Shown: positions 12,068 through 62,600, numbered from the stretch's first letter. The stretch is DNA of 64,000 nt from Scenedesmus sp. PABB004 (GCA_014905635.1 JABVCE010000009.1:434001-498000); one strand, 5' to 3'. The notes: generated by a model from the sequence alone, not told the origin. Numbers and translations are program-made.

Positions 12068-13148
12068 CCGCGGCGCGCCGGTGCGGCGCCGCGAGGGGGG
12101 ACCGCACGTACAGACGTTCTCATGTCGCGGCCGCGCCCGAGAGAGACCCCCCGGGGCGCGCCCGGCCACAGCGGGCCGCGCCGCGGTGGTTGTTGCTGGG
12201 AGAGTGGGCCCGCGCGAGAGGGCAGCACTTGACTGCAGCGGCGGGGGCGCCGCGGCGCTCGCGGTTTTTTCATCCCGCCGCACCGTGGCAGTGGTTTTCG
12301 AATTGTTGGGAGGTACTCGGCTGCAGGCTGGTGTGGCCGCTGCTGTGCGCCGCCGGCCGCCTGCCGCCCCGGGCGGCGGCGGCCGGCGGGCGCGGGCGCG
12401 GCCGAGGGGGCGCACGCCCCCGCCTGCGCCGGCCCCCTTGCGCGGCATGCAGCGCGGCGGCTGGCCGCCTGCGGCGGCGCGAACGATGACGACACACCCG
12501 GCGGCCGCGTTTTCATCGCTGCGGCGCGCGCGGAGCGTGTGTGCTGTATGCGGCTGCGATTTTTCGCTGCAGCTGCGCGGGGGCCTCGCTGCCCCGAGTC
12601 CTGATTTTGCTCTTGGATCCCCCTGTGCCACGCACACACCTAGCTGGATGTTTGCCGTGCGCCCAGCACGCAGCACATAAAAAACAACAAGGCAGCGCGA
12701 GAAAGGACGGGGAGCGTGGCGGCGCGAGGCAGGGCCAGGCCGCAGGCAGGCGTTGTCGACGTAGGTCCGAGTCAAAACCAGCGAGGAGAGGCCGCCCGCG
12801 TGGCACACGCGGCGGGCGGCGACCGCCCACGTCCTGTGGCGGGGGCTGCGCCGGAGGGCGAGGCGGCGCGCAGTTGTTGTTGCCGCCGCGCACGAGGTCA
12901 TAAACGCGAATTCGCCGCGACGCGTCATCGTCCGCGGTTCAGCTCAACCGCATCAGGTCGCCTCGCTCGCGAGGCGCTCCCGGCCGGCCCCCACATCCAC
13001 CGCAGGCGGCCGCCAGCACTCAGGCAGCCGGGCGGCATAGTGACAGCGCGCCGCCGCCGGCGCGCAGCAGCGGCGCGCGCCGCGGTCTGCCCCGCCCAGC
13101 AGCAGCGCTCCCGTCTCACCCCCGCGCCCGTCCCTGCGCCTGCTCGCG

Positions 13149-15531
13149 ATGGTGGCGCTCACCTACTCGCTGCGCGTGGCGCGGCGCGGCCCGGCGGGGC
13201 CGCAGGCGGCCGGCGAGGCGCGCACGTCGCTGCTGGAGCTCTCTGAGCCCGGCGCGACCGTGGAGGACCTCAGGAAGCGCGTGGCCGCGAACCTGGGTGC
13301 GGTGGCGGGGCTGGGGCGCGTGCGCGCTGCCAGCTGCAGGCCGGCGGTGTCCGCACGCCGCCGGCGCAGCGCACAGCAGCAGCGCGGCGCGCCGCCAACT
13401 TGCTCCCCGCTCGCTGGCGCAGGCTTCCCGGCCCTGATTTACGCGGTGGGGCCCAGCCTGGACACGTCTGACCACCTTTCCCTCAACCCGTACGAGCGCG
13501 TGTGCGGCGACAAGTTTTACGTGCTCGACGGCCAGCTGGCGCGCCACCGCGGGCGCGTGCGCAGCATCCACTACGACGGCAGCCTGCGCAAGCTCGCCAC
13601 GTTTGCCGAGGTCACGGCCGCGCCCGTCGCGGTGGAGCTGGAGGCGGTGGAGGTGCCCGCGGCGGCCACGGGCGCGCCGTTTGAGGTGCACGCCAAGACG
13701 CTGATCGGCAAAGTCATCCCGCTGAGCGTCAGCGCCGACACGACGGTGCTGCAGGTCCAGCAGATGATCCAGCAGCGCGAGGGTGCGTGCTCGCTGCGCC
13801 GCGCCGCGCTGTGCTTGCAGGCTGCGGGCGCACACCAAACGGCCGCGCTGCACCGCGCCGCCGCGCCGCACTGACTGGGTAGGGATTCCTGTCGGCCAGT
13901 CGCGCTACATCTTTGCCGGCAAGCAGCTGGCGGACGAGCAGACCCTCGGCGATCTGGGCCTGCGCCCGCCCGCCGTGGCCTCTGCGCACGCAGCGGCGGC
14001 CGCCGGGCTGCCCTGGCTCGCGGCCGCGCGCACCGGGGCGGAGCGCGACGCGCCGCCGCCTGCCTCCGGCGCCGTCCCAGTCATCCACCTGGTGTCGCGC
14101 CTGCGTGGCGGCATGTTCCATGTGACCAGCGGGCGCGCCGACAACCACGTGCCCCTGCCGCTCGCCGAGACCCAGGTCACGGTCGTGCTGCCGAGCGGCG
14201 CCGAGGTCGCGCTGACCGTGCCGCCCGAGATCACCGGCGGCGCGCTGCTCGCGCGCGCGCTCGCGCCGGCGGCGGAGCAGCCGCCCGGCGCGCGCGCCGG
14301 CGACGCCGACACAGCGGCAGCGGGGAGCCCTGGGCAGCAGCAGCAGGACGATCTGGCGCGCCTGCTCGCGCGCGTGCGCGAGCTGCGCATGCGCGCGGGC
14401 GGCGGCTTCAGGGCCTGGGGCAAGCGCGAGTGGGCGGCCGTGCTCGCGGCCGAGGACGCGCTGCGCCTGTGCCCCGAGACGCAGGCCGCGTACGCGGCCG
14501 CTGAGCAGCAGGACAGCGCCACGGACTGGCTGGAGGTGACGGAGGGCCTGCAGCGCCGCGTGCTGGCCGAGGCGGGCGTGGACGGCGGCGCGATGCACGT
14601 CGCGCTCGCGGAGCTCCGCGCCGCGCCGCACCGCCACGCCGCGCTGAAGCCACTGTGCCTCTACCACCGCCACCAGCGCGCGTGGGACGGGCCGCCCGTG
14701 GGCAGCGCGGTGCCGCCCGAGCTGCGGCTCGCGCCGCCGGGCGCGCCGGGCGCGCGCGTGCGCCTGCTGGACGCCTTCACCAGCCCCCGGCACGAGCTGC
14801 TGGTGGTGTTTGCCGGCAGCCACTCCTGACCCCCGTTCCGGGCCATGGTGCAGCCCATGGCCGAGCTGGCGGAGGAGTTTGGCGGGCTCGTGAGCTCGGT
14901 CGTGGTCTACATCGCCGAGGCGCACGCAGGTGTGCGCTGCGCGCGCTGCGCGCCGCCGCGCCGCGCCGCCGCGCTCGACTCGGCCTCGCCCGCGCCCCCG
15001 CCCCACGCGCGTGCGTCGCCCGCCGCAGAGGACGAGTGGCCCATCAAGAGCAGCCGCTTCAACGGCGGCCGCGGCCCCGTGTGCATCCCGCAGCACGCGA
15101 CGACCGCGGCGCGCTGCGTGGCCGCCGCGGCGTTTGCGGCAGCGTTTGGGCTCCGCCTGCCGCTGCTGGTCGACCCCGTGCCGGGGGAGGAGCGCGGCGA
15201 CGGCAGCGACCCCGGCGCCTGGCTCGCCGCGCCCGCGCCCGCGCCCGCGCCGGCCCAGCCACCCGCCGCCGCCGGCGCCGCAGCGCCGGCGGGCGGCGCG
15301 CCGCGCAGCTGCCTCGGCGGCGCGTGCGCGGCGCCGCCGGGCGCGCGGCGCGGCTACGTGGGCCTCGGCCGCAGCGGCCCCTTCGACGCGGCGCTCGCGC
15401 CGTGGCCGCTGCGCTTCTACGTGCTCGACCGCCGCGGCGTGCTGCGCTTCAGGGCCGACCCACGCGACTGCGCGTACGACATCCTCGAGCTGCGCGCGTT
15501 CCTGCAGGGCGCGGCGGCGCGGCCCGCGTAG
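13149..15531 (+). CDS. Ubiquitin-like domain / iodothyronine deiodinase-like selenoprotein fusion (Sec at TGA 14827-14829)
   Basis: Exons 13149-13296, 13423-13782, 13883-14929, 15029-15531 (all GT-AG). Ubl part: FEVHAKTLIGKVIPLSVSADTTVLQVQQMIQQRE|GIPVGQSRYIFAGKQLADEQTL...IHLVSRLRGG. Deiodinase part: LLVVFAGSHS-U-PPFRAM..VVYIAEAHA|EDEWP..QHATTAARCVAA..LLVDPV..APWPLRFYVL. SECIS in the 3' UTR. Confidence 0.88.
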
Positions 15532-15590
15532 CCGCGCGCGCGCGCGCGCGGGAGCGGGGGCGGCGCGCCAGCGCGGCGGCGGCGGCGGCG

Positions 15591-15674
15591 GCGGCGGGCT
15601 GCCATGACGGCGGGGCCCCCACCCCGGGCGCGCGCGCCCGGGCGGGCCCCGCCCGACCCCCGCCTGCCCGCCGC
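15591..15674 (+). promoter_or_regulatory. SECIS element (form 2, C-rich apical motif)
   Basis: Helix I GCGGCGGGC 15591-15599 / GCCCGCCGC 15666-15674. Core ATGAC 15604-15608 / CGAC 15654-15657. Perfect 10-bp helix II 15609-15618 / 15644-15653. Apical mini-stem 15623-15630 / 15635-15642. Lies 60 nt after the stop of a gene with an in-frame TGA. Confidence 0.82.
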
Positions 15675-15818
15675 ACGCCGCACGCCGCCCGCGCTGGCGT
15701 GCTTGGCTCCCCCTGCGTGCTGCTGTGTGCTCGACCCAGTTGAACGCGCGAGTTGACCCCACACGCGCCGCCCGCGGCCCTCGCGCGACGGCACGCCACT
15801 CGGCAGCGGCGCTGCGCA

Positions 15819-16066
15819 GCTGATGGTCGCCGCCCATGGCGCTGCGCTGCGCCCGGGCCAGGGGCGCTCGTCGCGCTCGTCGCGTCGACAACCACGTGCC
15901 CCTGCCGCGGCGCGCTGCCCACTCGATCGCGCACGGCCAGGGCGGTGCTGCCCCCCGCGTGCCGGGCGGCGGCGCCGCTGCCGGCGCGGCGGAGCTGGGG
16001 CGGGCGCCTGGCGCGCCCTGGCCCGGGTCCTGCCTGCAGTGCGTGGTGGTGGCGCCCGGTCTGCAG
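15819..16066. repeat. Diverged inverted copy (about 250 bp) of 24396-24657
   Basis: Colinear reverse-complement similarity, including a 38-nt exact match (16029-16066 vs 24396-24433) and a 22-nt exact match around the ARID gene ATG (15819-15840 vs 24636-24657). Confidence 0.9.
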
Positions 16067-16335
16067 GCGCGCCATCGGGGGGAGGGGGGGCGCAGCGTTC
16101 GAGCGGCGCTCGAACTCGCAACGGTCACCGGCGGCCCGAGCCCTGCCCCGCGCCCCAGCGGCTCAGCGCGCCGCGCCGTCCGGTGCGCGCCGCTGTTTCC
16201 GCCCGCATCGGCGTCCTCGCCGAGCCCCTCCGCCCGCATCGGCGCTGGTCAACTCAGCCCTCCGTCGCCCGCCCCCCACGCGCCGCAGCCGGGCCGCTTC
16301 GCCCCCGCGCGTGCGCCGCCGTGAAGCGCGACAGC

Positions 16336-19300
16336 ATGACGCGCCTCCTCCTGGATCGCGCCGTCCCGCGCCTGTTTGCCAAGCGCGCCTCGAAGGCCGC
16401 GTACTCGAAGGCCGAATTTCTCGAGGACGCCGCGCCGCCTCGCGACTCGGAGCCCCAGATCCTGGACGGGGAGCTGGCGGAGGCTGATCAGGGGGAGCAG
16501 ATCACGGCGGCCGAGCCCCCGGCGGCGGCCGAGCCGGCCGCGGCGGCCGAGCCCATGGATTCGCTGCTGCCCTGCGGGGAGCCCGCCAGCGACGCGCCGG
16601 CGGCGGCTGCCAGCGAGGCTCCCAAGAAGCGCAAGGGCCTGCTCGAGCTGTTCCACCTCACCAGGGCCCGGGACAAGCAGGCGGCGGAGCAGGGCGCGCC
16701 GGCGCCGGCGCGCTACAAGGCGATCCTGCGCCGCCTCGCGCGCAAGGCCAGGGCGCCCGCGCCCGCGCCCGCGCCCGCGGCGCCCAGGCCGGCCAAGGCC
16801 GCCAAGGTGCGGCGGCGAGCGCGGCGGCGGTGCGCGCACGCGCGCGCGCATCGGCTCGGTGCGGGCTCAGGCCGCCGCGCGCGCCCCGCCCCCGCCGCCC
16901 ACGCTGCGCGCAGAAGAACCCGCACGCCCTGCACGCCGCGGCGTGGCGCACCGACGTCGCCGAGCTGGGCGCGCTGCTCGATGCCGGCGGCGACACGTCG
17001 AAGCGCGACCGCGCCGGCCTGACCGCGCTGCACTACGCCGCGTGGCAGGGGAGCGTCGAGGGCGTCGAGCTGCTGCTCGGCGCCGGCGCCAAGGCCGACG
17101 CGGCCGACCCGGAGGGCATGCTGCCGCTCCACTTTGCGGCGTGGTTCAACCGCCTCGACGTCGCGGCGCTGCTGCTCGACCGCGGCAGCGCGCTCAACCC
17201 GCCCGCGCGCGGCGGGCAGTGGCCGACGACGCCGCTCATCTACGCGGCCAAGATGGGGCACGCCGACATGGCCGCGCTGCTCATGGAGCGCGGCGCCGAC
17301 GTCGCGGCGACGTACAAGGCCGCGAGCAGCGCGCTGCACGAGGCCGCGTGGGCGGGGCACGCGGCGGTGGTCGCCGAGATGCTGCGCCGCGGCGTGAGCC
17401 ACGACCTCGCGACCTCGGTGCGGCCGCGCGCCGCCGCCGCCGCCTCCGCCGCGCGCCGCCGCCGCGGCCAGCCGCGCGCCGGGGCTTGCTTGCACGCGCG
17501 GCCCACCCCGCGGCCCACCCCGCCCCGCCCCTCCCCGCCGCCGCCGCCCGACCCGCCGCGCAGAAGAGCAAGTACCGCCCGCTGCACCTGGCGGCGATGA
17601 GCGGCAGCACCGCGGTCGTGGCCGAGCTGCTCGCCCAGGGCGCCTGGGTCGACGCGCGCTCCCAGGCGCGCCCGGACGCGCGCGCGCCCGATCACGGCGG
17701 CGCGGCGCGGCACACGGCGTGGCCGCACCGCCCTCCCTCACACGCGCCCGCCGCCCGCCGCCGCCGCGCGCGCAGATGGGGCGCACGCCCCTTCACCTTT
17801 CTTGCGAGAAAGGCCACGTCGGTGCCGCGGCCGCGCTGGTCGCGGGCGGGGCCGACCTGCTCGCCAAAGACAGGGTGAGGAGCAGCGCACGCGCGCGGCA
17901 CGCGCCGCGCTGCACCCAGACCGCGCGCGCCGCGCGCCGGCTCGCGCCGCGCGCCAAGCTGACGCCGCGCGCCTCCGCGCGCGCGCGCGCGCGGCGGCCG
18001 GCCGGCGCAACCCCCCCCCCCCCCGCCCCCCAGCACGGCTTCACGCCGCTGCACCTCGCGGTCGACAACAACCACACCGCCCTGGCCAAGCTGCTCCTGG
18101 ACAAGGGCGCCACGCCCGACGCGCCCGACGCGGTGCGCCGCCGCCCGCGCCGCCGGCCGCGCCGCGCGCGCGCCGTCGCCGGCCCACCGCCGCGCGCCGA
18201 CGCTCACCCGCTCTCCCCGCCCGCCCCCGCGCCCCCAACCTCCCAGCACGGCGCGCTGCCGCTCAACTTTGCTCACGACCCCGACTTCTTCAAGCTCCTC
18301 CGCGCCGTGCGCTGGTACGGCGCCGCGAGCGTGCCGAGCGGCAACAACGCGCGCAGCCGGCGCTACGTGAGCGCGTTCGAGGCGGCGGCCCCCGTGGGCA
18401 CGGCGGCGGCGGGCGCGGGCGCGGGCGACGCGCTGCGCGCGTCGACATCGAGCGAGGCGGCGGGCGCGGCCATCGCGGCCGCGGCGCAGGCCGCGCAGGC
18501 GCGCGCGGGCGGCGGCGGCTGGCTTAAGGCGCTGCGCTCGCGCCCCGCCGCCGTGGCGGCGGCCGCCGCGGCGCCGGGCAGCAGCGCGCTGACGGCGCCC
18601 GAGGACCGCGCGGCGCCCGCCGCCGACGGGCCGGCGGCGGCCGAGCCGCCGGCCGCCAGCCCCGCCGGCAGCGCGCGCAGCGGCGAGAGCGCCGCCGCGC
18701 ACGCGGCGGCGGTGAGCATGGCGCACCAGGCCGTCCAGGCGGTCGTAGAGCGCGCCGCGGTGGAAGCGGCGCTGGAGCAGCTCAAGGCCAGCCAGGGCGG
18801 CGCGCAGGGCGAGACCGCGGCGATCGGCGGGCCGCCACCCGCCGGCGCGCCCGCCGCGGCGCCTGGCGCGGCGCGGCTGAGCGCCGACGACGCGGCGCTG
18901 CTGCAGCAGATCCGCACCGCGCTCAGCGCCGGCGGCGACGACGTGGCCGCGTCGCGCCGCGGCAGCTCCGCCGCCTCGCCGCTGCCGGCCACGGCCGCCG
19001 AGGTCGACGAGGAGGAGGTGCGCGGCGCGGCGCGGCACGGCGGGGGGGGGGGGGGGAGCAGGAAGGGAGGGGCGGCGGGCGCGGCCGCAGCCCGGCTCCA
19101 GTCCAGTCGCTGGCCTGCGTGTGCGCGCGCCGGGCCGAGCTTAGCGCCGTGCTGCGCCGCGCCGCCGGGCACGCGCGCGCAGGTCCGGCTCGAGCAGTTC
19201 CTGCGCCAGCCGGCGAGCATCAGCTGCGACGCGCCCGCGCCCGCGCCCGCGCCCGCAACCTCGGACGCGGACGAGGGCGCGGGCGACGTCCAGGGCAGCT

Positions 19301-38569: not shown

Positions 38570-41262
38570 ATGGGGTGGCGCCTGACGGCGCCCCCGGGCG
38601 TGCTTGAAGCCGTGGCCGGCGGCGGCAGCGGCCTGCTGGTCGCCGCGGTGGACGGCGCGTCGAACGCCGCGGCGCTCGTGGCGGCGCTGCCCGCGCCGGC
38701 CGCCGGCACGCTCGCCGATGCAGCAGGTGCGCCTGGCACGGCGGCTGGGCGCCTGTGCCGCTTCCGGCGCCGCTGCGGCCGCCGCGCGGCATCGGGATCG
38801 GGCGGGCGGCGCCGCAACCGCCGCCGCCCGCCCCGCGCGTGCGCCGCCGCCGCGCAGAGGCGCTCGCGCCGCTGCTGCCGCAGGGCCTGCGGGCGGTGGG
38901 GAGCTACGGGGCGTCGGTCGGGGGCCTGTGGGCTCCGGCCGCGAGCCCGGCGGTGACCGCCGCCGGGGGCTCGTGGCGCGTCGACGGTGCGCCGGCGCCG
39001 GCGCCGGCGGCAGCAGCAGCAGCGGCGCCGCCGGCGGGCGGCGACGGCGACGCGACGCTCGACGTCGCTGCTGGCTTCGTGCCGCTCAGGTGCGGGCCGG
39101 CCGCGCCGGCGGCGGCAGCCGCACCACCCGTCCGTCCCTCGCCCACCTACGCGCCCCCGCGCCCCCGTGCCGCGTGGCCCAGGTGCCGCCTGGACGTGCA
39201 CCTGCAGGTGCTGCACCCGGCGGGCGGCGCCGGCGGCGGCGCCGCGCTGCCCGCGGCGGCGATCGCGGCAGCGTTTGAGCAGCTGGAGCAGAGCCTGCTC
39301 ACGCCGCAGCTCGCGCTGGTCAGCGACCCGGCGGCCGGCGGCGAGCAGCAGGCGCAGCTGGCCGTGACCAGCAGCAGCACGGGCACCGTCGGCGAGCTGC
39401 TGAGCGCGGCCGCCGCCGCCGCCAGCCCCTGCCTCAGCCTGCTGCCGCTGCAGCGCACGGGCGGCGGTGGCGGCGGCGGCGGCGGCGCGCCGCCCGCGCC
39501 GCAGTTTGAGTTTGAGCCCGCGGCGGCGCCGCAGCAGCTGACGCGCGTGCCGCTGGGGCTGGACGTGCTGTGCTACGCGCCGGCCGGCCTGCCGGCGGGC
39601 CAGCTCGCGGCCGCGCTCGTCGCGCCCGCGCTGCGGCGGCAGCTCGCCGCGCTGCGGCGCGACGCGGAGGCCGCGGCCGCGGCGGGCACGGCGCCGGCGC
39701 CGCTGCGCGCGCACCACTTCACGCCGCCGCCGCTCGGCGGGCTGGCGGTCACCCTGGCCTACCCGGAGCTGCCGGGCGGCGCCGAGGCGGCCGAGGCGAA
39801 GCTGCTCCCGCGGCGCCGCGCGCTGCACGCGGCGCTGGGCCTGCCGGACGACGTGCCGATGCTCAAGCTCGCCAACGCGCTCTCCTGGGCGCGCCGCGAC
39901 GGCGTGCCGCGCAGCCTACGCCTGCGCAACGTGCACGAGGGCCTCGCCCCGCCCGGTGCGCCGCGCCGCGCCGCCGCGCCTCCGCCGCGCGGCCCGCCGC
40001 CGCCCTGCCCTCTCCAGGGCTGGCCGTGCAGACGCGCGCCGCCGGCGCGTCGCTGACGGGCGGCGGCGCGGGGCGCAGGGTTTGGTGGCCGCCTGTACCT
40101 CGTGGACGGGGCGTACGACTACCACCACTACATGCAGGCAAGGGACTGTCGCTTGGTTGATCTGCTTGGTTTGTTTGTTTGATCGTGTTTGTGCAACTGT
40201 GCCTGCGTGTGTGGCGGAGGAGCGCGGGGCGAGAGCTGGGCGCGAGGGCTGAGCGCCGGGCGGCCCCGTGGGTCTGCCGGGGCGCCGTCGACCGGGCCGC
40301 GCCGCGACCCGCCGCCGCCGCCGGCGCCGCGGCTTGCAGGACAAGTTCAACGACAGCGGCTGGGGCTGCGCCTACCGCAGCCTGCAGACGATCGTGTCGT
40401 GGTTCCGCGCGCAGCGCTACACGAGCAAGCCCGTGCCGGGGCACACGTGCGTGTGCCACGCGCCGCGCGCCGCGCGCCGCTCGCCACGCCGCGCCGCCGA
40501 CGCGCGCGCGCCGCGCCCGCCGCCTCGCAGGGAGATCCAGGAGCTGCTCGTCGCGCTGGGCGACAAGGAGCCGTCGTTCGTGGGCAGCTCCAACTGGATT
40601 GGAGCGATCGAGCTGGGCTACGTGCTGGACGAGTACCTCGGCGTCACCTGCAAGGCGCGCCCGCGCAGCCCGCCGCGTCTGCTGCCGCCCGCCGCGCCCG
40701 CCGCCGCCCGCGCCGCCCGCCGCGCCCGCCGCTTCGCGTGCGTGGGCGCGTCGCCGCCGCCGCCGCCGCCAGTGAGTGCGTTGCCGACGTGTGCGTCGTC
40801 GCCGCCGCCACGTGCGCAGGTGCTGACGGTCAACCGCGGCGCCGACATCCCCAGCCACGCGCGCGCGCTCGCCGCGCACTTTTCGAGCCAGGGCACGCCC
40901 GTGATGATCGGCGGCGGCGTGCTCGCGTACACGCTGCTCGGCGTCGCGTGGGACGAGGGCACCGGCGAGGCCGCCTTCCTCATCCTCGACCCCCACTACA
41001 CCGGCGGTGAGCGCGGGCGCTCGGGCGCCGCCGCGCCTGGGCGCCGCCGCGCCCGGGCGTGCCCCGTGGCGCGGCTGCGTTTGTCCTCACGCCGCGCGGC
41101 GCGCGCGGCGTGGCGCGCGCAGGCGAGGACCTGCGCAAGGTGCAGGGCGGGACGTGGGTCGGGTGGAAGCAGCTCGGCGACAGCGCCGCCGCGGGCGGGC
41201 CCCTGTTCGTGGCGGACGCGTTCTACAACTTCCTCTGCCCCCAGCGCCCGCGCAGCGTGTGA
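38570..41262 (+). CDS. UFSP2: Ufm1-specific protease 2 (peptidase C78)
   Basis: [66 protein letters not shown]; the long N-terminal domain is present. Confidence 0.95.
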
Positions 41263-41809: not shown

Positions 41810-44800
41810 ATGGCGGCAAAACGCAGCGACGGCGGCGACAAGGGCTGCGCCGCGTGGGCGGCGGCGCTGCGCGCCAAGTTCAGCTCCAGGGCCGCCAGCG
41901 GTGAGCGCGGTCGCTGCACGTGCCCATGTCCGCCCGCCAAGCCGGCGGCCAGGCGTGCAGGGCGTCGGCGGCACCGCCGCGCGCCCACCCCGCTGCTGCC
42001 GCCGCTGCTGCCGCTGCCGCAGCCGTCGACATGAGCCCCGGCGCGTTGATACTGGGACTGGCGGTCTACTGCGGTGCGCGACGGCGGCGGCGGCGGCGGC
42101 TCGTGCCAGTGCGGCGCACGCCCGAAGTGAGCCGCGCGGCAGCTCACCCCGCGCGCGCCGGGCGCGCACGCCCGCGCAGGCCTCTGGTTCGGCGCGCCCG
42201 AGTCCTGGGCGCCAGGCGGGCCGTGGTTTGCGATGCTCGCGCTCTGGGCCGCGTCGCTGGCGGTGGCGGAGGTGGCGTCGTGGGTGAGCGCGCGGCGGGG
42301 CGGCGCGCCAGCCGCGGGGGTGCCAGCCGCGGGCCCGCCGCCCAACCCCGCCGCCGCCTGCCCGACCCCGCCGCCCTCCCCCCCCCCCCCCCGCAGTTCA
42401 AGATTCCACGCGCGCCGGCCATGGTCCTCACCGGCATGGCGCTCGCCCAGATCCCCAACTCGGCCACGCTCGCGCTGCCAGAGTCGTGGGCGAGCATCAT
42501 CCGCGCGCTCGCCCTCGCAATGGCGCTGCTGCGCGGCGGCCTGGAGCTCGACCTGGGGGTGCGCGCGCGCGCGGCGCGCGCGGCACGCGCGGCGCGCGCA
42601 GCACGCGCAGCACGTGCCGCGCATCGCGCGCGCGCGCCGCGCTCGGGGGCGCGGCCGACGCCCGCGCCCGGCCGCGCGCCGCCGCCGGCGCCCGCCGCGG
42701 CGCCGCGGCGCAGACGATCTGGCGCCTCAAGGGCCCCGCGCTCGCGTACACGATCGGGCCGATGGTCTGCGTGGTGCTCGCCGTCGCGGGCGTGAGCGCC
42801 GCGCTCGTGCGCATGCCGGTGATGCTGGGGCTCGCCTTTGGCTTTGTGCTCAACGCCACCGCGCCGGGCATCATCGTCCCCCAGATGGTCATCCTCGCGG
42901 GCCAGGGCCGCGGCATCAAGTCGGGTGCGGATCGCGCCGCGCCGCGCCGCGCACCCGACGGCCGCCCCGCACCGCACCGCCCCCGGCGGCGCAGCGGGGC
43001 CGACGCCGCCACCGCTCCGCCGCCGCGCCGCCGCCGCACTACTCGCGCGTGCCGCCAGGCGCGACGATGATCGCGATCGTCGGCTCGGTGCTGGACCAGG
43101 TGGCCAACATCACGGGCTTTGCGGTCGTGTTCAACATCGCGCTGCCTGCGGGCGACTCGTCGCTCGCGTGGACGATCTGCAAGGGCCCGACCGGCATCGT
43201 CGTCGGTTTTGTCGCGGGCATCGTGCTCGGCGTCGTGTGCGGCTGCACGCGCGTGTGGAACTCGACCGCCAAGCGCTGCGGCGCCGTGGTCCTGCTGGGT
43301 GCGGCGCGGCGGCGGCCGGGGCGGGCGCCGCCCGTGCGCCGCCGGCGCCGCGCGCGCACGCCGCGGCCGACGCCGCGCGCCGCGCCACTCCCCGCCGCGC
43401 TGCCGCAGTGCTGATGCTGATGCTTGTCATGCGCAGCAGCTTCCTGCAGGTGGGCCGGCGGCCCCGCGCCCGCGCCGCCGCCGCCGCGGGCAGCGCCCGC
43501 CCGCCGGGCCAGCGGCGCCGCGGGCCGGCGCGCGCGCGAACGGCTCGCCGAGCGCGCCGCGCCGCCGCCGCGCCGCGCCGCGCCCGCAGTCGGTGACCGG
43601 CGGCGCGATCGGGTCGCTCGTGGTCGGGCTGCTCGTCCCGGTCATGTGGGAGCGCGGCTGGCCGCGCTGGCTGTCCGAGGGCGCGCGCGATCACTATGCT
43701 CACACGGTCGAGTACGCCGTGCGCAAGACCTGGGCGTGGGTGTTTGAGCCGCTGCTGTTCGGCACGATCGCGTACGACATCGTCTTTGCCACGATGGAGC
43801 GCTCGCTCGCGGCGCTCGCGCTCGCCATGGTCTTCATCTCCCAGGCCGTGCGCTTTGCGAGCGCGGCGCTCACGATGCTCGCGCTGCGCTTCTCGTGGCG
43901 CGAGTCGCTCTTCTTTGCCATTACCTGGATGCCCAAGGGCGCCGTGCAGGCCGCGCTGGGCTCGGCGCCGCTCGCGGTGATGCAGCACACGCTGATCAGC
44001 ATGGCGCAGGGCGGCGCCGCCGGGCCGGCGGTGTATGGCGAGCGCGACCTCGCCTGGGGGCGGCTGATCAAGACGAGCGGCACGCTCGCGATCGCCATCT
44101 TCACCGCGCTCGGCGCGCTCGGCATCGAAAAGGTCTCCCCGCTCCTGCTCGCGCCCGAGGTGCGGCGGCGCCGACGCGCCGCGCAGCCCGCGCGCCGCGC
44201 GCGGCGGGCCCGCGCGCCGACGCGCGCCCGCCGCGCCGCGCCCGCGCCCGCGCTCGCCAGAAAACCACGATCGAGCAGCTCGAGGAGGAGCTGGAGACGC
44301 TGGAGCAGGCCGAGGCCGAGCTGGCCAAGGACGACTCGCTCTACGCCGGCAGCCTGCCCGGCGCGCCAGACGGCGACGGCGACGGCGACGGCGACGCGCC
44401 GGCGCCGGCGCCGGCGCCGTCGGCGGCGGCCCCCGCCGCGGCGGCGACGCTCGCGGCGATGCGGATGCGCGGCACGCTGCCGCGCCTGCAGCGCATACGG
44501 AGCCTGCGCAGCAGCTTCCGCGACAGCGGGCGCTTCGACGTCGACCGGCAGCTCGCGATCTGTGAGGAGGCGGAGGCGGAGGGCGGCGGGCTGCCGGGCG
44601 CCACGCTCAAGTGCGCCGGGCGCCGGCCCGCACGCTGCGCCGCGCGCGGCGCAGCGCGCGGGCCTCGGCACGCGGGCGTTGGCCCCAGCTCGGCCTCACC
44701 CGCCCCGCCCGCCCGCCCGCCCACGCCGCCTCGCAGGCCGGACGACGCGCTGACGCAGGAGCTGCTGTCGCACCCGCACAAGCTCAAGTCGTACTTCCTC

Positions 44801-59600: not shown

Positions 59601-62600
59601 GGCAGCAGCTTCATGTCGCCAGCGGCGCAGCCGGACGGCGGCGCAGCGGGTACAGCGGGCGGGCCGGCGGCGCCAGCAGGCGCCAGCAGCGGCGCCGCCG
59701 AGGTGGCGCTGGCGCTGAACCAGGACCTGGTGGCGGCAGCGGTGAAGTTGGAGGGCCTGGCGCGGCGGCTGGAGCTGGCGGAGCGTGAGAAGGAGCGCGT
59801 CGGCGCGAGCCTGGCGGAGGCGCAGGTGCGGCGGCCTGGCGGCGCGCTGCGAGGGCGGCGGCTTGCACGAGGGGGCTGGTGCAGGAGGAGGGGGGCGGAG
59901 GCTCGCAGCTCACCGGCTGCCTGCGGTCGCGACACGCGCTGGCACCCACGCCGCGTGTGGCGCCGCCTGCTGCCACGCAGGCCCACAACGCCGAGCTCGA
60001 GCAGCGCCTCGCGCAGGTCAGCGCCGAGCTGTCCACCAGCCGCGCGCTGGAGGGCTGCCTTCAGGCGCGCCTCGCGGCTTCGGTTCCTGCGGCGCAGCTG
60101 GAGGACGCCGTGGCGCGCCTCGAAGCGGCCGAGGCGGCCTCGAGCCAGCAGGGCGGCGCGGCAGCGGCGCTGCTGGCGCGCGCCGAGGACGCGGAGCGGC
60201 GGCTCGCCGAACTGGGCGGCCGCAAGCAGCGGCAGCTCGCGGACATCACCAACCTCAGGTGGGCAGCCAGCCTCGCCGCTCGCCGCTGGCCGCTCGCCGG
60301 CGGGGCCGCCCCGCGCAGGCGCGCGCGCGCGCGCACGCGCTCATGGCCCGCGCCGCGCCCGCCGCCGCTCCAGGTCGGCGGTGTGCGAGCTGTCGAGCGG
60401 GTCGGACGCCGCCGCGGCGCTGGGGAAGCTGCACGGCGAGCTGGACCACGCGCGCGCCAAGGAGTCGCTCGCCCGCAGCGCGCTCAACCGCAGCGAGGCC
60501 GAGCGCAGCGAGCTCGAGCGCCAGGCGCGCGGGCTGCGGCAGCAGGTCGCCAGCCTCGGCGCGCAGCTCGCCGTCGCGCAGGACCACGCGCGCTGGGCAG
60601 AGTCGGAGCTGCTCGACTCGCTCACGCGCCTGGAGCTGGGCCTCGCGAGCGGCGTGGAGGGCTGGAAGGCGAGCCGCTGGGCGGCCAAGCTGGAGACGCT
60701 TAAGGCGCGCAACGACGGCCTCGCCACGGGCCTGGCGGCCGCGGTGCGGCGGCTCGCCAAGCTCGAAGACGCGGCACAGGAGGGCGAGCTGCGCGCGGAG
60801 CTGGCCGAGGTGGGTCGCAGGGCAGGGGGTGGGCCAGGCGGGCCCCGGCTGCGCGTGCCGGCGGTGGGGCCGGCCAGCGCGACGGGCACGCTGCGCGCCC
60901 GCGCGCCGCCCGCGCGCGCCGCAGGACGTGCAGTCGCTGCTCGCGCGCGGCGCGTCGGACGTGCAGCGCGAGGCGGCGGCGCTGAAGCAGCAGCACGTCG
61001 CGCTCCGGCTCGAGGCGGGGCGGCTGGGCCGCGCCGAGCTGCTGCTGCGCCAAAAGGTGGCCTACCTGGAGCGCGTCAACGCGGAGCTCTGCGAGCTGCT
61101 CGAGCGCGGCGACGCCGAGGCGCTCGCCGCCGCGGGCGGGCTGCAGGCGGAGAAGCGGGAGCTGCTGGCGCGCATGCGCGCGCTGCAGGAGGAGGTGCGC
61201 TTGCGCGACGCGGCCGCGCGCTGGGGCTCCCAGCGCGGCAGCCTCTGAGCGCCGACCGGCGCCACCGCAGGTGGTGCGGCTCCAGGACCGCAGCGGCAGC
61301 CTGCTGGCGGAGCTGGAGGAGGCCAAGGCCGCGCGCGGCGGCAGGGCCGGCGCCAGCGCCGGCGCCGGCGCGCCCGCCGCCGGCGCGCAAGGCGGGCGCG
61401 ACGCGGCGTCGCTCGCTGCGGTCACGCACGCCGCGGTGGCGGACAAGGAGCTGCTGCTGGCGCAGATCGACAGCCTCAAGGAGGTGCGCCCCTGTTTTGA
61501 CGCTGCGTCGGCGGCGCTGGGCCGGCGGCCCGCGGCCAGCCAGGGGAGGCCTGCGCTGCGCGCGCTGACCGCCGCCGCCGCACGACCACAGGCGCGCACC
61601 GAGGCGGAGCACATGCGCCAGGAGTGCCGCGACCTGCAGGCGCAGCTCGAGCGCCAGCAGGCGCAGCTGGAGGACCTGCAGGTGTGCGCACGCGGCCGCT
61701 CAGCGCCGGGCCCCGTCGCTGGCCCTGCCGCTGGTCGCCGGCGCGGCCGCCCAGCCTTGCCTCTCCCCCCTCTCTCCCCGCTGCTGCAGTCCTCCTATGA
61801 CGACGTCCTGGAGCGCCTCAAGGGGCAGAGCGCCTCGCTGCTGCACGCGCTCGGCAGCGAGGGCGGCGCGACGGGCGCGACGCACGACACGGCGCTCACG
61901 CAGGCGCGCGGCGCGCGGGCTGGGGCGCCCGGCCGCGCACACCGCGGCGCCGCGCTCACCGCCCCCCGCGGCCGCCGCCGCGCCGCGCGGGCTCGGCCCG
62001 CAGCTGCGCTCCGTGGCAGAGGCGGCGACGCGCGAGCTGCATGCCAAGGTCGCGGACCGGGAGGCGCAGCTCGCGGCGCTCGCGGGCCGCCTCGCGGAGC
62101 ACCAGGCCGCGTACCTCGCGCAGCACGCCAAGGACCGGGCGGAGATTGAGGCACTGAGCAACAAGCTCTTCGACAGCGGCGCCGCGAGCATCGCGGGTGC
62201 GTGGCGGCGGGTGGCGTGTGTTTGGGTTGGTTGGCTGGTGTTCGAGGGGAGGGGCGCTGCGGCGCACGGCGCGTTGAGCCACTGTCGCCACCGCGGCGCG
62301 CGTGCGCCGCAGGGCTCAAGGCGAACCTCTCGCGCACGACGGCGGCGCTCGCGGCGACGGGCAACGGCCGCGAGCAGGTGCGCGCGGTGGCGCGGCGTGC
62401 CGTGCTGCGCACGCCTGTGCTGCTGCGCGCCGCCTGAGCCCCGCTGCCGCGCGCCCTCCGGCCGCAGCTGCCATACGAGCAGCTGCGCCTGCTGCTGGAG
62501 GAGCGCTCCAGCGAGGCGGAGGTGCTGCGCAGCCGGCTGGAGCAGCGCGAGGCGAGCCTGGAGGTCATGCGCAAAAACTACGAGGCGCAGGTGCGCGGGC

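Follow-up and report, generated by a model that had tools for sequence, protein, structure and literature searches.

A predicted, GC-rich type II SECIS element with an unpaired CC apex behind a deiodinase-like gene of Scenedesmus sp. PABB004

In eukaryotic selenocysteine (Sec) insertion, the kink-turn of the SECIS element binds SBP2, which recruits eEFSec together with Sec-tRNASec. The core of the element follows the consensus UGAN/KGAW, and the conserved bases at its apex are typically adenines and, in a few cases, cytosines, as stated in excerpts of the SECISearch3 paper (PMC3753652). Among the cases described in the relevant part of PMC3316567, CC takes the place of AA in SELENOM of placental mammals and in SELENOO of mammals, and within the vertebrates these CC forms evolved specifically in mammals. 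The SECIS element of human TXNRD3 also has a CC apex and, like that of SELENOO, is listed among the six weakest human recoders in the sections of PMC2761289 that deal with them; one more CC apex, in DsbA of Ciona savignyi, is given in an excerpt of PMC2874816. Portions of PMC3316567 and PMC2792357 call the function of these unpaired bases unknown, and their mutation was reported to abolish Sec insertion (PMC2792357). Long mini-stems above these bases are typical of the SECIS elements of Ostreococcus, of several of those of Chlamydomonas, and of the deiodinase-like SECIS of Dictyostelium, according to the passages of PMC2375036 on these organisms. In the full texts searched, no alga or protist was described as having a CC-type SECIS, an absence that carries little weight.

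Here we describe an element that combines a CC apex with a long mini-stem. It lies in a window of 64,000 nt, the whole stretch of DNA that was analyzed, from Scenedesmus sp. PABB004 (GCA_014905635.1, JABVCE010000009.1:434001-498000). The window has a G+C content of about 80% throughout and contains genes with GT..AG introns; the gene families represented, according to Pfam, include MED14, PP2C, ankyrin and LRR proteins. The Pfam scan covered table-11 ORFs from 1 to 23.6 kb (140 of the 399 ORFs of at least 100 aa), in which the deiodinase domain discussed below is split by a TGA and an intron. A tRNA search of the whole window found no tRNA and hence no tRNA-Sec. The features of the locus are compiled in Table 1. 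Taken together, they make it very likely that the 84-nt element is a working eukaryotic type II SECIS in the predicted 3' UTR of the mRNA of a deiodinase-like selenoprotein.

Table 1. Features of the predicted SECIS element, of the gene upstream of it and of a homologous metagenomic locus (positions refer to the window unless stated otherwise)
Feature	Position	Strand	Basis or remark
Predicted SECIS element, whole	15591-15674	+	sequence, RNAfold
Helix I, 5' strand GCGGCGGGC	15591-15599	+	tail of a (GGC)n tract; partner 15666-15674 in the 84-nt fold
5' internal loop UGCC, then core AUGA + C	AUGA 15604-15607, C15608	+	sequence
Helix II, 5' strand GGCGGGGCCC	15609-15618	+	10 perfect pairs with 15644-15653; also called as inverted repeat
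Apical bulge CCAC at the usual AAR position	15619-15622	+	unpaired
Mini-stem CCCGGGCG / CGCCCGGG, 8 bp	15623-15630 / 15635-15642	+	fold, inverted repeat
Loop of the mini-stem, CGCG	15631-15634	+	sequence, fold
Bulged C between mini-stem and helix II return	C15643	+	
Helix II, 3' strand GGGCCCCGCC	15644-15653	+	fold, inverted repeat
3' core CGAC, GA opposite the GA of AUGA	15654-15657 (GA 15655-15656)	+	sequence
3' internal loop CCCCGCCU	between CGAC and helix I return	+	
Helix I, 3' strand GCCCGCCGC	15666-15674	+	84-nt fold, 9 bp
Extended hairpin around the element, about 200 nt	15534-15730	+	basal stem of about 60 pairs with few bulges; inverted repeat
Exon	13768-14929	+	stop-free 13768-14826 (table 11); GC by codon position 0.81/0.53/0.97
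In-frame TGA, motif GSHS-U-PPF	14827-14829	+	DIO2/DIO3 alignment, coding signature, locus L002
Intron, 99 nt, GT..AG, inside the deiodinase-like domain	14930-15028	+	CAG|GTGTGC ... CCGCAG|AG
Last coding exon, C-terminal half of the deiodinase-like domain	15029-15528	+	block SGPFDAALAPWPLRFYVLD; GC by codon position 0.81/0.68/0.96
TAG stop codon	15529-15531	+	end of frame; downstream GC flat
SECIS-type hairpin of locus L002	L002 5845-5940		identical in L001, L003-L005, L007-L009

An earlier reading of the same DNA from the sequence alone had proposed an AUGAC/CGAC core, a 10-bp helix II, an 8-bp mini-stem closed by CGCG and a 9-bp helix I. All of these are present in the sequence, and the folding check that this reading had suggested returned exactly the proposed structure as the RNAfold minimum (−64.8 kcal/mol for the 84 nt, z −3.64), with none of 200 dinucleotide shuffles being as stable. 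The four apical bases CCAC, which had been said to be unpaired, have unpaired probabilities of 0.93, 0.99, 1.00 and 0.93, respectively, in the partition function, calculated in the 84-nt and 202-nt contexts. The pair probabilities of helix II range from 0.57 to 1.0 in the 84-nt fold and from 0.83 to 1.0 in the 202-nt fold, and helix II, bulge and mini-stem are the same in both. The register of helix I is ambiguous, with a slip of 4 nt along the (GGC)n tract in the 202-nt context. The 202-nt fold has an energy of −169.2 kcal/mol (z −4.87), which none of 200 shuffles reached, and it places the element at the tip of a hairpin of about 200 nt, with one arm made of (GC)n/(GGC)n and the other of (GCCGCAC)-like repeats. 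AUGA and GA border helix II with a single N.N position in between (C15608 and C15654), a juxtaposition that suggests tandem sheared G.A pairs in the core. The element has a G+C content of 92%, and its seven A or U bases among 84 comprise the four of the invariant core (A, U, A and A), the A of CCAC, and two U in or beside the internal loop.

With type II (form 2) SECIS elements (the clan of SECIS_1, RF00031, as characterized in excerpts of PMC3753652 and PMC2375036), the element shares AUGA facing GA in an internal loop, about 10 bp of helix II, a bulge with unpaired bases that is topped by an additional mini-stem, a helix I below, and a location in the predicted 3' UTR behind an in-frame UGA; the 8-bp mini-stem above the bulge is what assigns it to type II. 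It differs from them by CC(A) instead of AAR, by CGAC instead of KGAW, by its base composition and by a basal stem that can be extended to about 200 nt. An unpaired AA(R) is absent, A15621 being the sole A within 15609-15653. The AA position is instead occupied by the unpaired C15619 and C15620 (probabilities 0.93 and 0.99), as in the CC-type elements. In the 3' core, C stands for G/U before the GA and for A/U after it, so that KGAW is not matched. The sequence-only reading had called the apex non-canonical, which is correct relative to AAR, whereas CC itself is an already known variant; its statement that CC apices are the exception, found in mammalian SELENOM and SELENOO, agrees with the part of PMC3316567 cited above, and TXNRD3 and Ciona savignyi DsbA are further cases.

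The four CC-type elements of SELENOM, SELENOO, TXNRD3 and Ciona DsbA have in common with the present one two unpaired cytosines in place of AA in an otherwise standard SECIS and the NTGA__CC__GA spacing; what differs is the gene family, which is deiodinase-like here, and the host, a distant and extremely GC-rich unicellular-type eukaryote. The elements of Ostreococcus, Chlamydomonas and Dictyostelium with long mini-stems are likewise of type II, and that of Dictyostelium even belongs to the same protein family, as a deiodinase homologue of a microbial eukaryote. However, in the passages of PMC2375036 that describe them, the Dictyostelium elements have unpaired AAA, where the bulge contains CC(A) here, and UGUA before the core, and those of Ostreococcus mostly have G before UGA, which is A here. 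Both the CC apex and the long mini-stem are known features, and the element is an example of a described signal, not a new kind of signal. Unusual are the CGAC 3' core, the near absence of A and U, and the very long basal stem.

The element starts 60 nt past the TAG and ends 660 nt before the ATG of the next gene (genomic positions), which encodes an ankyrin-repeat protein on the + strand with its start codon at 16336; in the predicted spliced mRNA, the UGA lies about 675 nt ahead of the SECIS core. The region between the two genes lacks codon periodicity (GC by codon position is flat), and its table-11 ORFs gave no Pfam match on either strand. Between the TAG and the next start codon, ATGA occurs only at 15604, the ATGA at 16336 being the start codon itself, and a relaxed NTGA scan revealed no other SECIS candidate there. 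AATAAA, ATTAAA and TGTAA are absent from 15532-16340, the 3' region of the gene, a point against a working SECIS. Because the usual poly(A) motifs are absent and TGTAA is so rare (once per strand in the 64-kb window), the polyadenylation signal of the organism appears not to be of the usual kind.

The rival explanation that survives best, though we consider it improbable, is a chance GC-rich hairpin that contains ATGA and GA, in which case the real SECIS would lie elsewhere or the gene would no longer be expressed as a selenoprotein. When 84-nt windows of the real sequence were folded (both strands, step 7; mean −42.8 kcal/mol, sd 9.9 kcal/mol), 222 of 18,262 (1.2%) reached −64.8 kcal/mol or lower. 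Thus, equally stable hairpins are common in this genome, and low energy alone is no evidence for a SECIS. The sequence-only reading had counted an abundance of equally good folds in shuffled 3' UTRs against the element; with regard to stability such an abundance exists in the real sequence, but not in shuffles. A chance origin would also be in line with the derivation of helix I from a (GGC)n microsatellite with a slipping register, with an apex and a 3' core that are both off consensus, and with the lack of an Rfam SECIS match. Against it stands the rarity of the architecture as a whole. The search pattern for it consisted of ATGA-N, an uninterrupted helix II of 8 or more perfect pairs, N-GA and a helix I of 5 or more bp; of the 95 ATGA sites on both strands of the 64-kb window, one matched, namely the element of Table 1. 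Dinucleotide-shuffled windows (n = 200) contained a mean of 0.14 matches, with any match in 27 of them; at the quality of the element (helix II of at least 10 and helix I of at least 9 bp), the mean was 0.005, with a match in 1 of the 200. Since shuffling destroys real hairpins, 23 decoy cores (permutations of ATGA with GA or AG) were added as a control on the real sequence, and they yielded 1 match in 849 sites, that is, about 0.1 expected per 95 sites. Shuffles and decoys alike therefore lead to an expectation of about 0.1 such architectures per window (128 kb of strand), and of less than 0.001 in about 800 nt on the correct strand behind a Sec gene. In addition, the spacing rules of CC-type elements are followed exactly, and nothing else between the TAG and the next start codon qualifies as a SECIS candidate.

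The gene upstream of the predicted SECIS has the composition of coding sequence in this genome, in which GC by codon position is about 0.81/0.55/0.97 in exons, and becomes flat after the TAG (0.84/0.83/0.81). The first exon of Table 1 contains the C-half of a ubiquitin-like domain (ending with LRGG), a linker, and the N-terminal half of the deiodinase-like domain with the Sec codon. When the TGA is read through, Pfam T4_deiodinase (PF00837) is found with an E-value of 4.3e-7 and 29.9 bits, compared to a cutoff of 27. TGA 14827 aligns with the catalytic Sec position of DIO2 (9h48, E 1.8e-6) and DIO3 (4tr3), which are Cys-substituted crystal constructs: GSHS-U-PPF faces GSAT-C-PPF of DIO2, followed by VYIAEAH versus VYIDEAH. 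The motif of the deiodinase family, S-x-(S/T)-U-PPF and then (Y)I-x-EAH in a thioredoxin-fold domain, is present as GSHS-U-PPF and VYIAEAHA-EDEWP. The intron splits AEAHA|EDEWP and would add 33 read-through residues if unspliced; it is supported by four of ten database homologues (P0002, P0003, P0005 and P0009), which run AEAHA-xDEWP without these 33 residues, as does the metagenomic homologue L002. In a ranking of the 380 in-frame TGAs of the whole window that have 30 stop-free codons on each side, based on a codon-position likelihood model, TGA 14827 had the top two-sided coding score (8.1 versus 4.7 for the runner-up). The sequence statistics thus favour a reading frame that is translated before the TGA and carries on unchanged behind it.

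The runner-up TGA (62435-62437, + strand) is followed by a coiled-coil-like sequence (LRLLLEERSSEAEVLRSRLEQREASLEVMRKNYEAQ); it has no Pfam family, and no SECIS candidate was found between it and the end of the window. It more likely marks the edge of an exon or intron than a Sec codon, and since it lacks a family match, no second selenoprotein gene is seen in the window by this ranking.

The selenoprotein itself appears as a fusion, with a ubiquitin-like domain that is divided between two frames, presumably by an intron (13044-14929, + strand). The N-half (Pfam ubiquitin, 0.0032) falls within 13044-13871 and the C-half (6.7e-5) within the following exon; neither reaches the cutoff. The C-half ends with LRGG|M, and the stop-free exon that holds it also encodes the linker and the deiodinase-like domain. 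It is unusual for a deiodinase-like selenoenzyme to be preceded directly by an LRGG that looks cleavable.

A protein search retrieved ten homologues (P0001-P0010), all of them from metagenomic or other assemblies. The C-terminal half is conserved, and the block SGPFDAALAPWPLRFYVLD is essentially invariant and the most conserved of the family. The Sec column contains no trustworthy residue in any of the ten: most models begin just past the Sec site, for example P0005, which starts with MVPAMA immediately after it. P0009, which has Q in the Sec column, was rejected as a Gln homologue, because a low-complexity N-terminus is joined just before PPF, a gene-model artefact. Around the Sec codon, the public gene models of all ten look wrong, being either truncated or given invented N-termini, and mis-annotation of the deiodinase-like family by public gene callers seems to be systematic.

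A metagenome scan uncovered at least nine loci (L001-L009) with a homologue that is 40% identical in protein; the closer homologues P0001 and P0004 (JGI) are not among the loci listed. The nine loci are identical over the stretches aligned, including the SECIS region (L006 ends inside the element), and they therefore represent one independent lineage, with no covariation to count. The homologue of L002 has a TGA at the same site (SYS-U-PPA), matches T4_deiodinase with 4.1e-8 and shares the linker as well as the N-terminal extension (W-[ML]-EVTEGLQR); no ubiquitin-like domain was seen in the part of L002 examined. About 170 nt after its stop codon, L002 contains a SECIS-type hairpin that has in common with the Scenedesmus element the AUGAC core, a perfect 10-bp helix II, a location in the predicted 3' UTR behind a U site in the same protein family, and an apex other than AA. 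It differs by a consensus-like UGAU, by AUAU (neither AA nor CC) at the AAR position, by an apical part of about 60 nt with a (CU)9 tract, and by a much lower G+C content; judged by its primary sequence, neither of the classical SECISearch patterns would match it. Thus, the two family members inspected both carry a 3' SECIS-type hairpin without the canonical AA.

These data also bear on the view that TGA 14827 is a true stop codon or a pseudogene lesion, with the downstream part untranslated and the hairpin devoid of a recoding role. The public gene callers would side with it, having truncated or re-modelled 10 of 10 homologues around the TGA. However, a GC3 of about 0.96 and the same frame are maintained on both sides of this TGA, which ranks first of 380; the part behind it includes the most conserved block of the family; the TGA coincides exactly with the catalytic Sec of deiodinases; and it is kept in the 40%-identical homologue, which has a SECIS-like hairpin of its own. 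A stop or lesion is therefore highly improbable. To an organism-wide reassignment of TGA as a sense codon, which would make a SECIS unnecessary, we give next to no credence, as nothing specific speaks for it and reassigned TGAs would show inside many exons of the gene-dense 64-kb window, whereas one of 380 has a strong two-sided coding signature and the next best (62435) is much weaker and without a family. Decoding of the TGA as Sec, by contrast, is supported by a SECIS-type element in the right place. The sequence-only reading had regarded the element as independent support for Sec decoding, and this view gains from its rare architecture, from its position 60 nt past the stop codon, from the TGA on the Sec site of DIO2 and DIO3, and from the first rank of that TGA.

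Beyond the sequence, fold, rarity, distance from the stop codon and Sec-position TGA, all of which were computed directly, knowledge of Sec insertion in eukaryotes suggests how recoding would proceed. The AUGA and GA strands would fold into a kink-turn containing tandem sheared G.A pairs, to which SBP2 would bind. SBP2 would then bring eEFSec with its Sec-tRNASec to the ribosome paused at UGA 14827-14829, so that translation would continue past this codon with selenocysteine placed in the active site GSHS-U-PPF. In the bulge that separates helix II from the mini-stem, the unpaired CC(A) would replace AAR, as CC does in mammalian SELENOM and SELENOO. Because two of the three human CC-type SECIS elements are among the weakest recoders in the sections of PMC2761289 cited above, the element may be inefficient.

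The changes from A or U to C, at the apex (CC) as well as immediately before and after the 3' GA, would most likely result from the extreme GC pressure in this genome on positions that tolerate change. The earlier interpretation as a GC-adapted variant is plausible, and seven A/U bases in 84, four of them in the invariant core, fit it; with a single SECIS from this organism, such a variant is not separable from a quirk of this gene. A more far-reaching possibility, which we regard as rather unlikely, is that the whole SECIS consensus has drifted in this eukaryote of about 80% G+C, from AAR to CC(A) and from KGAW to CGAC in most or all selenoprotein mRNAs, with a concomitant change of the reader of the apical bases. 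As the L002 lineage is also without AA, the consensus derived from animals may greatly overstate how constrained the apical motif is in these microbial eukaryotes.

The sequence-only reading had further expected that default search patterns may miss the element, which is true for Rfam, but not for the classical SECISearch pattern. In Rfam 15, no SECIS family was found at the gathering score or at E ≤ 10 in the whole window, and none at E ≤ 10 in a 401-nt region, an apparent difference from type II SECIS elements in general. As a control, the less GC-rich SECIS of L002 was equally without a match, pointing to a low power for such algal-type elements. Thus, the CC apex is not the cause of the miss, and the failure of Rfam says more about its models than about this apex. 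The primary pattern of the classical SECISearch, as given in excerpts of PMC2375036 (Lobanov et al., 2007), comprises NTGA__AA__GA as well as NTGA__CC__GA with spacings of 10–13 nt and 15–39 nt. With 11 nt from NTGA to CC (15608-15618) and 34 nt from CC to GA (15621-15654), the element fits the latter and would pass the primary pattern of this standard tool.

For annotation, these results mean that the in-frame TGA of the deiodinase-like gene should be annotated as selenocysteine and not as a stop codon. With this element, the CC type would also be represented in a gene family and a lineage remote from the mammals and tunicates of the literature cited, and it illustrates how rich in G+C a SECIS can become. 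If this apex and this 3' core recur in the other selenoprotein genes of the organism, the truly required SECIS positions could be defined with the help of the lineage, and covariance models trained mostly on animals would need retraining for such genomes. If the consensus has indeed drifted, a natural series of mutants would be available for finding the partner and the role of the apical unpaired bases.

Two weaker matches elsewhere in the window were rejected. The relaxed NTGA scan with one mismatch allowed returned, apart from the element, a single weaker match at 38604, which was attributed to chance (1.2 expected), and an ATGA match near 17239 on the minus strand, whose helix II has 6 bp, was discarded because 0.98 such matches are expected. 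Very stable local hairpins are abundant in the window, with energies down to −79.8 kcal/mol for 84-nt windows; examples are found at 42560 (−), 31865 (+), 18606-18627 (−), 12321-12349 (both strands), 8792 (−) and 29960 (both strands).
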